Assembly: GCA_030606485.1 (NCBI GenBank)
Contig: JAUWGH010000008.1
Span: 1-32,000 of the forward strand
Origin: Promethearchaeota archaeon
GTDB taxonomy: Archaea; Asgardarchaeota; Lokiarchaeia; Sigyniarchaeales; SOKP01
Direction: 5' to 3'
Length of the DNA stretch: 32,000 bases
In this document: piece by piece, positions 2,467-8,096 of the stretch
How the letters are laid out: each line of letters opens with the position of its first letter
How positions within the stretch are numbered: position 1 is the stretch's first letter
Position numbers and translations under genes: made by a program
The notes under the pieces: generated by a model
Databases searched by the model: none
What the model was told of the DNA's origin: nothing
What the model saw: only the letters and a program-made list of their open reading frames with translations

Positions 2467-3069
2467 TTAAGAGATATTAAAATTTTCTATAGTTAAAAAA
2501 TCACTCAATTTGGTAAGAAAATTTGGTCCATCTCCAGGGTTAAATTTTATATTAGCAGGATCAATTTCGTTCAAATTAATATAAGAGAGATAATCATCGC
2601 CCTTAATAACAGCTATACCAAATTTGCGTAGGTTTGTTTTTTCTTCATATTCTACTAATTCTACTTTATCTTTCATGATGGATTTATATTTTTCTTCAGA
2701 GGCTTTATCTTTAAATTCATAAAAGAATACTAAAAGACTTTTAAAGCTTCCGCTAAATAAGTTCTGCCAAAAAATCATATGTTCGATATTTTTTCTATTA
2801 TCATCTATTGAACTTTGAGGTATTTTTGCATCAATCTCATACGCCTCATCGTCTTTTTCGTAGGGATTAGGATAGTCAAACCCAATTACATCAATGACAT
2901 ATTTTTTATCTACATCTAACGAATTGAACGCTATAAAATCAAAATTTTCTAAGTTTAAGCCCATAAATGGTTGTGGTTGAGTGCTATAATTTCTTATGTA
3001 GCAAATATCTGAACTTTTTAGTATCTTTTCAAATATATCAACATAAGTTGCTTTATTTTTTTCACTCAT
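2467..3069 (-). CDS. Hypothetical protein resembling the HYExAFE family (putative restriction-endonuclease-like fold), divergent
   Basis: Motif order YVDIFEKILKSSDICYI / NLENFDFIAF / YVIDVIG / MIFWQNLFSGSFKSLLVFFY parallels HYE.AFE.YLR...VPY / SLKSLDFIV / LLVDVKG / L..WQ.LFG.GF..LLVFAY as I recall them. ATG at 3069 is preferred over the track's TTG at 3084. Confidence 0.65.
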   Translation of the reverse strand: MSEKNKATYVDIFEKILKSSDICYIRNYSTQPQPFMGLNLENFDFIAFNSLDVDKKYVIDVIGFDYPNPYEKDDEAYEIDAKIPQSSIDDNRKNIEHMIFWQNLFSGSFKSLLVFFYEFKDKASEEKYKSIMKDKVELVEYEEKTNLRKFGIAVIKGDDYLSYINLNEIDPANIKFNPGDGPNFLTKLSDFLTIENFNIS

Positions 3070-3241
3070 AATTATTCTTATCAAATTTATCTCTTAAATA
3101 TATTGCATAATTAACTTTTTAAAATACCAAAATACTGTTAGGGACATAAAAGATTTTTATAAGAAAATATGAGTTTTTCAATAAGGAATTATTGATGAAG
3201 TAAAATTTAATTTTTGTTTCAGAAAGAATTCATATTTCCAA

Positions 3242-3592
3242 TTAAGTGGGTTTAAATGTAATTCCAAAAATTTCTTTTCCATCTAAATTTTCTGTTAATT
3301 TTTGAAATTTAGATGTTAATTTCATTCCAATCTTAAGATTCTCCGAGCTTATTATTTGTCCAATCGCTTTTAATCCATTGGAGTATTCTACAACACCAAT
3401 AGTGTAAGATTTTTTATCGCGGTATTCAGAAGGAGGTGCATTAAGAATTGTATAAGTTAATAACTTGCAATCCCCAGAAGATTTAACTGTATCAAACGTT
3501 GTATTTTTACATTGGATACACCGGAGATGGTCAGGATGTTGAAGTTTCCTACATTTTTTACATTTTTTCCAAACAATAGTTGTTTCACTCAT
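3242..3592 (-). CDS. DUF35 family Zn-ribbon/OB-fold protein (thiolase partner)
   Basis: CxxC-x10-CxxC (CKKCRKLQHPDHLRCIQC) followed by an OB-fold pattern (LLTYTI...P...YTIGVVEYSNG..AIGQI...LKIGMKL). ATG at 3592. Confidence 0.9.
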   Translation of the reverse strand: MSETTIVWKKCKKCRKLQHPDHLRCIQCKNTTFDTVKSSGDCKLLTYTILNAPPSEYRDKKSYTIGVVEYSNGLKAIGQIISSENLKIGMKLTSKFQKLTENLDGKEIFGITFKPT

Positions 3593-3597
3593 AAATT

Positions 3598-6508
3598 TCA
3601 CATCTTAATATCTTCACTTCTTACTACTTCAAGAATCTCAAAATGTAAATATAAATTATTAAATAATAAGAAGAGGAGCTTTCTAATATTTAATATATTG
3701 AATATATTAAATTTATTAAGATTTTTCATGGAAAAAGAAACTTAATATTAGTATAAACTATCTTTAAGAATCATCAATACTTAAAAAAAATATTTTAAAT
3801 AAATCCAAATATTTCTCCCATTCTTTAGTTAATTGGGGATATTTTTGTTTTAAATAATCTAATAAATTAACAACAGAATATAAAATAAGAGGATCAAACT
3901 CCCAAGCATGGTATTTGTTAAAAGTAATACATTTAATTTTTAAATCTGAAATTTGCAACATATTCCTAAGAATTAATCCATAAAAAGCGACCTGAGGTAA
4001 AGTGCGTAAAAAATTTCTATCTTTTTTTTTTTCTTCATCTGGTTTATAATCACAAGCGTAAATAATTCCATCATAATAAAAAAGAAAATCAATATGCCCA
4101 CTAATATATCTAAATCCTACATTATAATATTCTACATTTTGCCAGACAAGAACTTCTGTAGCAATAAGGTTTTTATCCCTTTTTAAAAAAAATTTTTGTA
4201 ATTTCTCGTGATAAATGTTTCCTTGGTTGCTAAAATTTTCAGCAAAATCTTCAAAAAATGAGATTTTATAGTAATTTTCAGCAAAATTTATAAAATCAAT
4301 CAATTTCTTTCCTAAAAAAGAATTATCTCCTTTAATAATTAATTTATTCTTTTCTAATTTGTTTATAAATGAATTAATATCTCCTTTTTTAAGTGGTTTA
4401 TTCCGATTATGAGAAATTTTGAAATCGGAACAACAAGGATTAATAATTTTAAACATTTCTTTATCGAAAGACTTATTTTCTATAATATCAAATAGCTTAC
4501 CCAATCTCTTAGCTAAATCTTGATTGGATATTCTAAATAAATTATCATAATTGCATCTAAACAATAGACGATGCCATCGATAAGGTTCATTAGTAAAGCC
4601 CACTTTAAATTTAGTTTCAAAAATATCCTCTAAATCCTCAATTATTTCTTTAACATAGCTGCCATGAGAAAATAAAGTATCGAATTTTTCCGCTAAATAA
4701 TTATATCCTATTAATGTATCATATTTAGTTTGGATTTTAATAGTTCTAATTAACTCAATCATCAAATAGAAATACTTTTCAAACAAGTTATTTGTTTCTG
4801 GATTATTAATTAAATAAAATAATCTCCCAAATTTTCGAATATTTACATCTTTAATGTCTCTTATTTTTAATAATAACATATTATCAAAAAAATCATAAAA
4901 TTTTTCTAATACTTCAGAATTATTTATTAAAAAACAATTATTATCTAATATTTGATAAATTTCGCGATATAATTGTTTTAAAATATGAAATGGAATCTGA
5001 ATAGAATGTATATCATCATCAACTAATATTCTTGCGTTGCTTGTATACCATCTTTCATAGCCATCTTCTCCATAAGCCAATAAGAATTCATATTCATTAA
5101 ATAAATTCCTTAAAAATTGGATTATTCTCCGCGGTCCTAAAATGTTTTTATACTGTTCATTTATTTTAGTATAACTGCCATACATCTCAAAAAGTTTTAA
5201 AATATTATAAGCGAATTCTTTTGAGTAATCAATTATAGCTTTTTCGGTATAACCAATAACATCTGAAAGAGTAAGATTATATTTTTCGATCTCATTTATA
5301 ATACTATCTTTTTGAATATCCCATGAAATTGGCTCAATTTCTGAGATTATTCTATATATATCTTCCTTTTTTTGTATTATTATCAAGTTTTGTGTATAAT
5401 ATTTCATAGATTTCTTATCTAAAGTCTCATAAGTTAAAATATTAGAAGAAATATTAATAGATTCAAATAATTTTTGCAAACCATTCAGAAAATCTTCTGT
5501 ATTTTGAAATTTTATTGATAATCTACCATCAAATTTATCAAGATATTCTCTAAAACTTATATTATAAACAGATGCACTATTAATTATCCCTATTAAACAT
5601 GAATATATTAATTCATCATTTTCAAAAATCCAATTTGGTATCTCTCTTGTCCTTGAAGATATATTATCAATATACACTCCTAATGTTAAAATTTCATAAA
5701 CAATAACGGTTCTATTAATAGTAAAGTTCGATGTCTCTCCATTATCATTATAATTTACTATAAATCCATTGTCTTCTGATATGTTAAAGAGATCCAGTAA
5801 CAATTCTTTCAAATAATTAACATATCTAATATCTTTATGATACTTTTTATTGCAATAAATTACTAAAGAATAATGTGTACTTCTTGATTTCTTAATATAA
5901 ATAGAAGCTTGTCCCAATAAAATACCTACAAATTCAGCAACCTTTTGAGATTTTTGTAAATTATATAAAACTAAATCATTCCTTCCTAAAACTTTCAAAT
6001 GAGGAATCTTACGATTAGATAGTTTTTGTAATTTATCAAAATGTTCCAACGATATTGAACTTCCTCTATAAATTGCATTACTCAATTTTAAAGTATGAAT
6101 AGTATAGTTATTATAAGGATGAAGATTTTTAATTTTCTTAAAAATTTGCGCTAAAAACTCTTTTTTAACTATAACCTTTTCATTACTAAAATTGTATTGA
6201 TCCCTTAAAATGAATTTTCCATCGTTAAATAAAGCGTTTAGTTCCTTTTCATTCTCATATAGGAAATCCATTTTTAATTACTTCAAATTCATTTTGTTTT
6301 TATAATAATTTTAAAATGAAGGAAATAATAAAAACAAAAACTCTCAGAAAATATAGTATAAAATAATATTTACGAATTTTATCTATTTCATTTTTTTGAT
6401 TATTTAGTGTTAATTAAACTCATTAAAATCCTTTATATCAGTGGAAAGTAATTGTTAACTTCATATATTATGACAATTATTTCTAATTATTTTAATACAA
6501 AATCACAT
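3598..6508. mobile_element. Candidate 2.9-kb insertion between thiolase and DUF35, flanked by a 6-bp direct repeat (TCACAT; ATGTGA on the coding strand)
   Basis: TCACAT occurs at 3598-3603 and 6503-6508. The right copy is the thiolase last codon plus stop; the left copy lies 5 nt before the DUF35 ATG. The only cargo is a nuclease-domain ORF. No terminal inverted repeats or transposase were seen. Confidence 0.45.
3764..6271 (-). CDS. Fusion of a degenerate LAGLIDADG-type DNA-binding domain, a helical linker and a C-terminal PD-(D/E)XK (RecB/Cas4-like) nuclease
   Basis: aa 112-122 AEFVGILLGQA and aa 225-234 CLIGIINSAS, preceded by 'IPNWIF', match the two LAGLIDADG helices but lack the catalytic Asp. 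The C-terminus has ATEV...GHIDFL...YACDYKP...LPQVAFY, i.e. E, D, DxK and QxxxY are intact. Confidence 0.8.
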   Translation of the reverse strand: MDFLYENEKELNALFNDGKFILRDQYNFSNEKVIVKKEFLAQIFKKIKNLHPYNNYTIHTLKLSNAIYRGSSISLEHFDKLQKLSNRKIPHLKVLGRNDLVLYNLQKSQKVAEFVGILLGQASIYIKKSRSTHYSLVIYCNKKYHKDIRYVNYLKELLLDLFNISEDNGFIVNYNDNGETSNFTINRTVIVYEILTLGVYIDNISSRTREIPNWIFENDELIYSCLIGIINSASVYNISFREYLDKFDGRLSIKFQNTEDFLNGLQKLFESINISSNILTYETLDKKSMKYYTQNLIIIQKKEDIYRIISEIEPISWDIQKDSIINEIEKYNLTLSDVIGYTEKAIIDYSKEFAYNILKLFEMYGSYTKINEQYKNILGPRRIIQFLRNLFNEYEFLLAYGEDGYERWYTSNARILVDDDIHSIQIPFHILKQLYREIYQILDNNCFLINNSEVLEKFYDFFDNMLLLKIRDIKDVNIRKFGRLFYLINNPETNNLFEKYFYLMIELIRTIKIQTKYDTLIGYNYLAEKFDTLFSHGSYVKEIIEDLEDIFETKFKVGFTNEPYRWHRLLFRCNYDNLFRISNQDLAKRLGKLFDIIENKSFDKEMFKIINPCCSDFKISHNRNKPLKKGDINSFINKLEKNKLIIKGDNSFLGKKLIDFINFAENYYKISFFEDFAENFSNQGNIYHEKLQKFFLKRDKNLIATEVLVWQNVEYYNVGFRYISGHIDFLFYYDGIIYACDYKPDEEKKKDRNFLRTLPQVAFYGLILRNMLQISDLKIKCITFNKYHAWEFDPLILYSVVNLLDYLKQKYPQLTKEWEKYLDLFKIFFLSIDDS

Positions 6509-7672
6509 TCTCTCTACTAATATTGAAAGTATATTATTCCCAAATCCCCCAAAATTACAAGTTATCCCAGTTTCCGCGCCTTCGATTTGTCTTTTCCCTG
6601 CTTCTCCCCTTAATTGCCATACTAATTCCACAACTTGAGCAACTCCTGTTGCTCCCAAAGGATGCCCTCTTGCTTTTAAACCACCTGAAGGGTTAATGGG
6701 AATTACTCCACCAATTTCCGTTAATCCCTCATACGCGGCTTTAGCGCCTTCACCTTTTTTGAAGAATCCCAAATCTTCACTCTGGATCGCTTCTAGTATA
6801 GTAAATGCATCATGGGCTTCACATACATCAATATCTTCAGGTGTTTTTTTAGCCATACTATAAGCTTGTTTTGAGCAGATTTGAAGTGCCTTCAAGACAG
6901 TTAGATCTTCACGTTCATAAACGATATGAGTATCTGTCGCCTGACCTACTCCTGTGATAAGGATAGGTGTATCACAAAACTTTTTTGCTATTTCAGCAGA
7001 ACATAAAACCATTGCAGCACCTCCATCTGAAATGGGGCAAATATCATATAATCGTAATGGATCCGCTATAATTGGAGAGGCTAATGCCTTTTCAAGAGTT
7101 ATTTCTTTTTGAAAGTGAGCATAAGGATTATTCATACCATTTTTGTGGTTTTTCACGGCAATACTTGTTATCCATTCTTTGGGGACATTATACTTTTCCA
7201 TATAAGTTCGAGTAAGCATTCCAGCCAAAGATGGGAGGGAGACTCCGTGAACCCTTTCAGCATTATGATGAGTTAATGTAGCAACTGCAGAGGTTATTAA
7301 ACCAGGCGTTGTAATATGGGTCATTTTTTCAGCTCCCACAACTAGGACCATATCACATGCTCCTGAAGTAATTGAATAAAATGCATTCTTAATTGCTGAT
7401 CCTCCAGATGCTGGTCCATTCTTAACGTGGTCAGCAGCTGCTGGAATTAAACCAATTCGGTCTACCACGGCACTTGCAATTGCGGTCATATGATTTAGTG
7501 TTTCTGCTAACATGCATGATACATAAACAGCATCAAAATCTTTATCGTTTGTATTTGAATTTTCAATTGCTTGTAATGAGGCATCACATAATAGATCTAA
7601 TAAATTTTTATCTTCCAACTTCCCAAATTTTGTATGTCCAACTCCTATTATCGCTACTTTATTCATAATCAT
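6503..7672 (-). CDS. Thiolase-family protein (archaeal/SCP2-thiolase type), nucleophile Cys absent
   Basis: VAIIGVGHTKFG N-terminus, CPISDGGAAMVL, EAHDAF, NPSGGLKARGHPLGATG and NFGGFG. The (E/N)xACASG loop reads KNGPASGG. Confidence 0.92.
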   Translation of the reverse strand: MIMNKVAIIGVGHTKFGKLEDKNLLDLLCDASLQAIENSNTNDKDFDAVYVSCMLAETLNHMTAIASAVVDRIGLIPAAADHVKNGPASGGSAIKNAFYSITSGACDMVLVVGAEKMTHITTPGLITSAVATLTHHNAERVHGVSLPSLAGMLTRTYMEKYNVPKEWITSIAVKNHKNGMNNPYAHFQKEITLEKALASPIIADPLRLYDICPISDGGAAMVLCSAEIAKKFCDTPILITGVGQATDTHIVYEREDLTVLKALQICSKQAYSMAKKTPEDIDVCEAHDAFTILEAIQSEDLGFFKKGEGAKAAYEGLTEIGGVIPINPSGGLKARGHPLGATGVAQVVELVWQLRGEAGKRQIEGAETGITCNFGGFGNNILSILVERM

Positions 7673-7737
7673 GCATTTATTTTTTATTCAATTATTAATG
7701 ATAATATTTTGATTTATAAAAATTGGACTTAAGGATA

Positions 7738-7745
7738 TTTATATA
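7738..7745 (+). promoter_or_regulatory. TATA-box-like element in the divergent thiolase/zinc-ribbon intergenic region
   Basis: TTTATATA about 34 nt upstream of the proposed start at 7779, followed by an SD-like GGTGA at 7768-7772. Confidence 0.35.
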
Positions 7746-7778
7746 CTTAGTTTCTTCTTTTTTAATTGGTGATAAAAA

Positions 7779-8096
7779 ATAGTTAATTTTTGCCAGTATT
7801 GTGGAAAAAAATTAGATATAAATATTAGATTCTGCCCCGATTGTGGGTGGGAAATAAAAGAAGATTCAAATCCAAATTTTCAAACACAGTCAGTTCAAGC
7901 ATCACAAGCTGCTGATCTCTCTAATCCATATGAGATTGATAATCCAAATCCCCCATCTCAGCCAACATCACCACCAGTATATTCAGGAGTACATGGGGGA
8001 GATGATGATGTTGGATTAGCCGTTGGTGCTGCATTATTATTTGGTCGAGGTCATAGAATTTATCGTAGGAGAAGAAGAAGATCCATCTTTTTTTAA
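7779..8096 (+). CDS. Zinc-ribbon protein with Pro/Ser/Gln-rich linker and a hydrophobic plus poly-Arg C-terminal tail; non-canonical ATA start
   Basis: Not in the ORF track. (M)VNFCQYCGKKLDINIRFCPDCGWEIKE...NPNPPSQPTSPPVYSG...GLAVGAALLFGRGHRIYRRRRRRSIFF*, 105 aa. An in-frame TAA at 7773-7775 leaves ATA at 7779 as the only start upstream of the first CxxC. Confidence 0.75.
   Translation: MVNFCQYCGKKLDINIRFCPDCGWEIKEDSNPNFQTQSVQASQAADLSNPYEIDNPNPPSQPTSPPVYSGVHGGDDDVGLAVGAALLFGRGHRIYRRRRRRSIFF

Follow-up and report, generated by a model that had tools for sequence, protein, structure and literature searches.

What is the role of a protein in which a LAGLIDADG scaffold without its two catalytic acids is joined to a nuclease domain of a different fold? 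The question is raised by an open reading frame (ORF) in a metagenome-assembled genome (MAG) of a Promethearchaeota (Asgard) archaeon from cold-seep or marine sediment (GenBank assembly GCA_030606485.1, here G000). The ORF lies within the first 32,000 nucleotides of contig JAUWGH010000008.1, and this whole stretch is referred to below as the window. The encoded protein, P0001, is the only gene product of a DNA segment that separates a thiolase gene from a DUF35 gene. In our view, P0001 is reasonably probably a free-standing homing endonuclease, one that would find its address through the dead LAGLIDADG saddle and cleave with the Cas4-like domain.

The N-terminal portion of P0001 (residues 1-345) was modelled with AlphaFold2 from a 40-sequence alignment. 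The model reached a predicted local distance difference test score (pLDDT) of 90, and the two four-stranded sheets that form the DNA saddle are both present. A Foldseek search matched it to single-chain LAGLIDADG enzymes at an expect value (E) of 1e-8. In VIA-align comparisons, the highest Z score was obtained for the TliVMA intein endonuclease (17.3; root-mean-square deviation 3.2, 181 aligned), followed by I-Tsp061I (17.1), PI-PfuI (16.2), WhiA (15.8), I-DmoI (about 15), and the bI3 maturase (13). At the sequence level, short relatives of residues 100-330 match the Pfam family LAGLIDADG_3 (PF14528) above the cut-off, and phmmer connects P0001 with PF14528-matching proteins at E values of 1e-11 to 1e-14. 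Both the fold and the homology of a LAGLIDADG homing endonuclease are therefore present in P0001, but the catalytic Asp/Glu is absent from the ends of both helices, with Q and A in place of the acids where relatives read LGDG and D(T/S)DG. Because both acids are missing, the canonical site at the helix interface cannot bind metal.

With regard to the C-terminal portion, a second model (residues 346-835, 59-sequence alignment) reached a pLDDT of 92. Residues ~562-825 match Cas4/RecB-type PD-(D/E)XK nucleases only, with Foldseek probabilities of 0.98-1.0 and no match of this model at E <= 0.001. The VIA-align Z scores of the module are 7.9 for an N-terminal domain of F. magna DinG, 6.7 for Cas4 SSO0001, 6.5 for MGME1, 6.3 for Cas4-Cas1, 5.9 for AddAB, and 5.2-5.6 for Exo5, RecB, and the NucS repair endonuclease. 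The predicted family assignment rests on these consistent weak matches together with Z scores of 5-8. The motif residues E706, G725-H-I-D728, D741-Y-K743, and Q760/Y764 are invariant in four full-length homologues; in the 59-sequence alignment, G725 occurs in every sequence that has a residue at this position, and the other motif residues are found in 84-96%. P0001 scores 13.3 bits against the Pfam model PDDEXK_1 (cut-off 22), and its stand-alone relatives score 22.0-22.3 bits. The module does not have the features of Cas4 proper: only C614, C740, and C781 are conserved, and there is neither a four-cysteine iron-sulfur (Fe-S) pattern nor a C-terminal CxxC-type cluster. In addition, no cas genes, Rfam matches, or repeat matches were detected in the window.

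From the N- to the C-terminus, P0001 is comprised of four parts, a helix-turn-helix (HTH)-like region, the two-lobed LAGLIDADG fold, a helical middle region, and the Cas4/RecB-like module. The HTH-like region is shared with active LAGLIDADG relatives and was aligned with P0002-P0004 and P0153. The middle region is also present in the active relatives P0153, P0031, and P0014 and is therefore not a linker invented for the fusion; its matches to known structures are weak, of HTH-like or helical-bundle type, with Z about 5. The preliminary description of this DNA, made from its letters and ORFs, had already recognized the loss of the acid in both helices, an N-terminal LAGLIDADG fold, and a complete C-terminal RecB/Cas4-like motif set (E, GHID, DYK, QxxxY), all of which agree with the models and alignments. 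Failure of the N-terminal region to take up a LAGLIDADG fold, which that description named as grounds for refutation, is contradicted by the model, and the other computational checks that it proposed were likewise favourable to it. Its spacer of about 450 helical residues, however, is not a single spacer and resolves into the second LAGLIDADG lobe (to residue ~330), the helical middle region (335-560), and the helical N-terminal part of the nuclease module.

Searches with P0001 itself returned little. No match was found in NCBIfam or in PDB sequences, a PDB profile search yielded spurious matches alone (E about 0.3), and Pfam reported PDDEXK_1 alone (E 0.08, residues 710-771), with no LAGLIDADG match. 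Among 1.8 billion representative proteins, 274 relatives were retrieved, which form four groups: a few full-length homologues with 34-45% identity (P0002-P0005, P0007, and P0008), many proteins of 200-330 residues matching only residues ~100-330 of P0001, many proteins of 130-290 residues matching only residues ~570-830, and proteins that carry the C-terminal module behind other N-termini.

The relation between the two active sites was then followed through the family, in which every collected protein was classified with hidden Markov models of both domains and 46 LAGLIDADG relatives were recognized. The LAGLIDADG domain and the nuclease module occur together in nine proteins (P0001-P0004, P0007, P0010, P0011, P0040, and P0055), and P0008 is a tenth, frameshifted case whose nuclease part lies in the next ORF. 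Both catalytic acids are gone in all ten. The replacement residues vary by subclade: Q/A in P0001, S/Y or S/H in P0002-P0004, and R/N, K/A, K/T, or R/S elsewhere. On the other hand, LGDG and D(T/S)DG are both retained in 35 of 35 intact relatives without the module, and a 36th unfused relative, truncated before helix 1, keeps the D of the second motif. The fused architecture, which the preliminary description had proposed to look for in Asgard genomes, is found in other Promethearchaeota and in uncultured-archaeon assemblies.

Both putative building blocks also exist separately. G000 itself encodes P0153, a 627-residue paralogue with the HTH, LAGLIDADG, and helical layout, intact LGDG and DTDG, and no nuclease module. 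The module alone is a protein of ~250 residues that occurs in most related genomes; P0001 finds matches in 34 of 41 related genomes, nearly all covering only the nuclease module, and full-length copies are present in three of the 41. The simplest history would start from an HTH-LAGLIDADG-helical endonuclease like P0153, to whose C-terminus the stand-alone Cas4/RecB-like nuclease of ~250 residues would have been joined, with the redundant LAGLIDADG site losing both acids afterwards. As separate observations, stand-alone modules of ~240-300 residues (for example at G032:C1:601459-602659, G025:C30:32121-33714, and G028:C8:33994-35338) sometimes occur as tandem pairs, and P0020, P0053, P0041, and other proteins carry the module behind N-termini that are HTH-rich or unassigned.

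The genomic setting of P0001 suggests mobility. The empty sites in three genomes of the same genus (G001:C32, G003:C410, and G002:C106) join window position 3604 straight to 6503-6505, and filled sites are found in G000, G002:C182, and G003:C319. G002 and G003 each have both an empty contig and a filled contig of ~2.9 kb, the latter 97% identical to G000. G001, which belongs to the same genus and is 100% complete, has the empty site, and no P0001 homologue was found in it. Empty junctions were also seen in two independent cold-seep assemblies, as contigs in which 3604 or 3595 is connected to 6611 (depth 22 in X2 and 3 in X4), together with insert-carrying contigs. The G + C content of the insertion is 22-24%, compared with ~30% in the flanks.

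The flanks of the junction are mosaic. The empty allele of G003 is 95-100% identical to G000 beyond ~400 nt from the junction, but identity falls to 67-80% over the final 400 nt of the thiolase gene and to 84-89% over the initial 300 nt of DUF35. The filled allele of G003 has the reverse pattern, with 96-98% identity to G000 beside the junction and 89-93% further out. Filled and empty alleles differ by divergent flanking tracts of roughly 330 nt and 300 nt. Two haplotypes (F-type and E-type) can be distinguished in the 3′ ~330 nt of the thiolase gene, diverging from the codons before HDAFT to the stop, and the empty allele of G002 is recombinant, changing from one haplotype to the other ~110 nt ahead of the thiolase stop. 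This mosaic resembles co-conversion. The HDAFT and GHPLGATG motifs of the thiolase are intact in both haplotypes.

More distant copies also show signs of decay, as the P0008 copy in L027 is frameshifted near residue 789 and the copies in L025 and L026 have an internal stop. Polymorphism, mosaics, decay, and the insertion of P0153 described below are footprints expected of homing with co-conversion, although they are not proof of it.

The preliminary description had left the choice between a selfish and a defensive element, and it is the former that is favoured by the precise presence/absence insertion and the co-conversion-like mosaics. As a defensive or exclusion nuclease, P0001 would recognize foreign or competitor DNA through its LAGLIDADG scaffold and degrade it with the Cas4-like domain, the gene being cargo of mobile DNA and not the driver of its own spread. 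A DNA-binding domain combined with PD-(D/E)XK is an arrangement characteristic of restriction-like defence, in other proteins the nuclease module follows HTH-type N-termini of various kinds, and P0002-type genes lie in a run of small ORFs beside the Cas4-HhH-RNase_H_2 gene described below. However, P0001, P0002, and P0153 have no PADLOC match, no methylase or immunity partner is seen, and P0001 stands alone inside a metabolic operon of the window and not in a defence island; a precise filled/empty polymorphism with co-converted flanks is moreover what homing predicts. A defensive role is accordingly regarded as unlikely.

The ends of the insertion bear on another alternative, in which a site-specific transposon or integrating element uses a TnsA-like or restriction-like PD-(D/E)XK domain to insert the 2.9-kb unit where the dead LAGLIDADG domain directs it, leaving a 6-bp target-site duplication. 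The direct repeat ATGTGA flanks the insert and is present as one copy in the empty alleles, and insertions recur near thiolase genes in differing arrangements. Yet no terminal inverted repeats were found at the ends of the insert, which is single-copy in a 100%-complete genome (no second P0001 copy was found in the source genome), and no independent insertion with a duplication of its own was seen. Divergent co-transferred flanks are not predicted by transposition either. Chance, or the illegitimate insertion at the origin of the element, can produce six bases of microhomology. The repeat alone is indecisive. Transposition of this kind appears distinctly unlikely. Since no tRNA or Rfam family was found within the window, the site is also not an integration site of the tRNA type.

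The link to thiolase genes extends beyond the window. P0153 lies in a precise ~2.4-kb insertion, 80 bp past the stop of a second, different thiolase gene; it is absent from G001 and G003, whose contigs G001:C44 and G003:C27 carry 43 bp in its place. The P0002 gene (L001) is located 2.6 kb from a thiolase gene, the homologue in L030 adjoins a thiolase fragment, and P0008 (L027) abuts the last 100 thiolase codons, followed by a DUF35 gene, with homology beginning exactly past the HDxFT codons. The flanks of the short contigs L025, L026, and L023 contain no recognizable thiolase or DUF35 gene. No thiolase was found within 1.5 kb at 11 loci with active LAGLIDADG relatives in related genomes, and therefore the thiolase association belongs to the fused clade and P0153, not to the whole family. 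These arrangements suggest that the fused clade targets thiolase 3′ regions. The cut would lie either where the insert is located or, as in "intronless homing", about 300 nt further upstream, at the HDxFT codons.

Several further features of these loci were recorded. The operon at the P0153 site contains a fusion of an HMG-CoA-synthase-like protein with DUF35 and a thiolase, and in G001:C44 and G003:C27 the AAA-ATPase gene downstream has a different start. At L027:4930-5113, the orthologous thiolase is cut off at the HDxFT codon by the P0008 gene, which has the opposite orientation. At L001:16110-16230, a thiolase gene carries a frame-breaking insertion of 31 nt, with a hairpin of 6-bp stem, exactly after the HDCFT codons. 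Possible explanations for the coinciding HDxFT positions in L001 and L027 are a target or cleavage site common to both, a footprint, or a mini-intron. L030 was considered as a further thiolase interrupted at HDxFT, and this was rejected in favour of a deletion that joins residue ~276 of the thiolase to residue 164 of another gene. The latter encodes a 690-residue protein with Cas4-like, helix-hairpin-helix (HhH), and RNase_H_2 (PF13482) parts (L001:13326-15398, L002:7784-8212, and L030:3638-4621). In three separate assemblies it lies directly after P0002-type homologues and is convergent with them, and it is internally deleted in L030; it could be either a conserved partner or a component of some larger element.

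Recurrence beside thiolase operons could also be expected of a domesticated DNA-binding protein of the WhiA or maturase kind, which would regulate the thiolase/DUF35 operon or serve it as a repair factor, with a repair role for the nuclease domain. Dead LAGLIDADG scaffolds are known regulators, and the fold of WhiA is similar to the model, as its Z score of 15.8 indicates. A WhiA-like regulator would be a conserved, syntenic housekeeping gene with a C-terminal HTH beside the dead LAGLIDADG domain. The P0001 gene, however, is sporadic (the three genomes with full-length copies do not include the complete G001) and inserted, its product is joined to a nuclease, it is poor in G + C, copies elsewhere are pseudogenised, and it interrupts a tightly coupled gene pair. 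Domestication is therefore considered very unlikely. It is scarcely credible that P0001 is a decaying homing-endonuclease remnant whose acids were lost by ordinary degeneration and whose C-terminal domain is an accidental, functionless fusion: some copies are broken, and homing endonucleases usually lose their catalytic residues once they have become fixed, but the full architecture and invariant nuclease motifs are kept in homologues of only 34-40% identity, the ratio of nonsynonymous to synonymous substitution rates (dN/dS) of P0001 against the G002 and G003 copies is 0.32-0.42, the acids are lost in every fused member and in no unfused one, and the LAGLIDADG fold is predicted with high confidence.

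As a free-standing homing endonuclease, P0001 would act in four steps. The dead LAGLIDADG saddle would bind a long site at or near the thiolase 3′ end in insert-free alleles, probably helped in site recognition by the HTH and helical regions. The tethered PD-(D/E)XK domain would then nick or cut nearby, and recombinational repair from a filled allele would copy the 2.9-kb insert together with a few hundred flanking bases. The filled allele would be protected because its site is split or bears the divergent F-type sequence. We infer DNA cleavage itself, as well as the domain that gives specificity, the position of the cut, and whether one or both strands are cut.

Several points weigh against this interpretation. 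A 6-bp flanking repeat is unexpected for classical homing. The Z scores obtained for the predicted nuclease domain, between 5 and 8, are middling. Many Cas4/RecB-like domains are end-dependent exonucleases of single-stranded DNA and not endonucleases of double-stranded DNA, and with a single active site in each monomer, the enzyme would have to nick or to dimerise. P0001 itself remains under the Pfam cut-offs for both domains. The fused proteins may form one clade, so that the correlation with acid loss may reflect a single event. For G002 and G003, the filled contigs measure ~2.9 kb and derive from MAG bins, and the mixture of filled and empty sites could represent co-occurring species instead of alleles; the divergent flanks could likewise come from ordinary inter-species recombination. 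Finally, in the P0002 clade the neighbours are the Cas4-HhH-RNase_H_2 gene and a run of small ORFs, and a larger element may carry the gene there as cargo.

The positions of the features discussed here are collected in the table. Two observations concern the surroundings of the insertion. Directly downstream of the DUF35 gene, a 205-residue ORF (window 2467-3084, minus strand) has no Pfam match and is found beside DUF35 in G001-G003 with 84-95% DNA identity. At window 7444-7831, contig depth rises several-fold in public runs (to 457 in X2, compared with ~30 nearby), and many loose contig ends fall at 7620-7660. A short repeated or widely shared sequence in the region upstream of the thiolase gene is suggested by this.

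Table. Features of the P0001 locus and of the P0153 insertion (window coordinates unless stated otherwise; aa, amino acid residues of P0001)
Feature	Position	Strand	Basis
Insertion of 2905 bp (one repeat copy counted), P0001 its sole gene	3598..6502	minus	Empty-site comparison
P0001 ORF (chimeric nuclease), 835 aa	3764..6271	minus	Translation without internal stop
N-terminal helical HTH-like region, aa ~30-95	5987..6184	minus	Model helices 37-50, 64-69, 75-85
Two-lobed LAGLIDADG domain, aa ~100-330, four beta strands per lobe	5282..5974	minus	Predicted model
LAGLIDADG helix 1, aa 112-123, catalytic Asp replaced by Gln	5903..5938	minus	Alignment to relatives
LAGLIDADG helix 2, aa 225-234, catalytic Asp replaced by Ala	5570..5599	minus	Alignment to relatives
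All-helical middle region, aa ~335-560 (~225 aa)	4592..5269	minus	Predicted model and alignments
Cas4/RecB-like PD-(D/E)XK module, aa ~565-830 (~260 aa)	3782..4579	minus	Model matches, motifs, PDDEXK_1 score
Predicted catalytic core: E706, GHID725-728, DYK741-743, Q760xxxY764	3980..4156	minus	Alignments of homologues
Direct repeat copy 1, ATGTGA, includes thiolase stop TGA (6503-6505)	6503..6508	minus	Junction sequences
Direct repeat copy 2, ATGTGA, followed by 5-nt spacer and DUF35 start ATG at 3592	3598..3603	minus	Junction sequences
Thiolase gene, upstream flank	6503..7672	minus	Pfam Thiolase_N and Thiolase_C_1
Insert-linked F-type thiolase 3′ tract, ~codon 283 (just before HDAFT) to stop, 20-33% divergent from empty alleles	6503..6826	minus	Nucleotide alignment
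DUF35 (OB_ChsH2_C) gene, downstream flank	3242..3592	minus	Pfam; in empty alleles starts 5 nt after thiolase stop
P0153 locus	L022:7630-10047 (G000 contig C1, about 73629-76046)		

Among known systems, the archaeal LAGLIDADG enzymes of the PF14528 type (I-DmoI, I-Tsp061I, PI-PfuI, and the intein endonucleases) share with P0001 the two-lobed single-chain fold, sequence homology, and sporadic precise insertion, whereas P0001 lacks both acids and has an additional HTH region, helical region, and second nuclease domain. WhiA/DUF199 and the LAGLIDADG maturases likewise keep the fold as a nucleic-acid binder without the acids, but they are conserved housekeeping or splicing factors without a nuclease domain, while P0001 is sporadic, mobile, and nuclease-fused. 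With Cas4, RecB, AddB, MGME1, and Exo5, P0001 has in common the core fold and the E...hhD...(D/E)xK...QxxxY set; it differs in having no significant sequence match to a solved structure, no four-cysteine Fe-S pattern, and no CRISPR or helicase context, and in the fusion of the module to DNA-binding domains.

Homing by PD-(D/E)XK chemistry is represented by I-Ssp6803I, which, unlike P0001, is a small tetramer without a LAGLIDADG scaffold and is not from Asgard archaea. SegF and SegG of phage T4 are free-standing GIY-YIG homing endonucleases that carry out "intronless homing"; like P0001, they are encoded by free-standing genes between conserved genes, and they spread with co-conversion of flanking markers, as is proposed for P0001, but they are GIY-YIG enzymes and, again, not from Asgard archaea. 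With regard to engineered chimeras, Tev fusions to inactivated I-OnuI have reportedly been made. MegaTev enzymes, in which the I-TevI nuclease domain is fused to LAGLIDADG meganucleases, have also been described (PMC4117789). MegaTev, megaTAL, and FokI fusions follow the same logic as P0001, a long-site binding scaffold tethered to a separate cleavage domain. In contrast to them, P0001 is natural, its cleavage domain is Cas4/RecB-like PD-(D/E)XK instead of GIY-YIG or FokI and is placed C-terminally via a helical region of ~225 residues, and its LAGLIDADG site died by evolution and not by design. Dead LAGLIDADG binders and engineered nuclease-LAGLIDADG fusions are thus already known, and literature searches found no natural fusion of LAGLIDADG with PD-(D/E)XK/Cas4 and no Asgard homing endonuclease of this kind.

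Homing endonuclease families are sorted by a single catalytic fold. If the favoured reading of P0001 is correct, it would represent a natural active-site swap, in which the LAGLIDADG recognition scaffold was kept and the chemistry was replaced by another nuclease fold. Evolution would then have reached the same "binder plus cutter" design as the engineered MegaTev, megaTAL, and FokI fusions, and retargetable nucleases could draw on a linker and geometry that are compact and naturally optimised. A bolder proposal, which we advance tentatively and with some doubt, is that P0001 founds a hitherto undescribed class of natural Asgard homing endonucleases in which an extinct LAGLIDADG domain is the address and the Cas4/RecB-like domain cuts at a distance, in the thiolase gene near the HDxFT codons, the position at which the insert-linked divergent tract starts, the L027 thiolase breaks off, and the 31-nt insertion of L001 lies. 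If this is true, "intronless homing" would take place from one Asgard population to another, and a two-module architecture would be available ready-made for retargetable nucleases.

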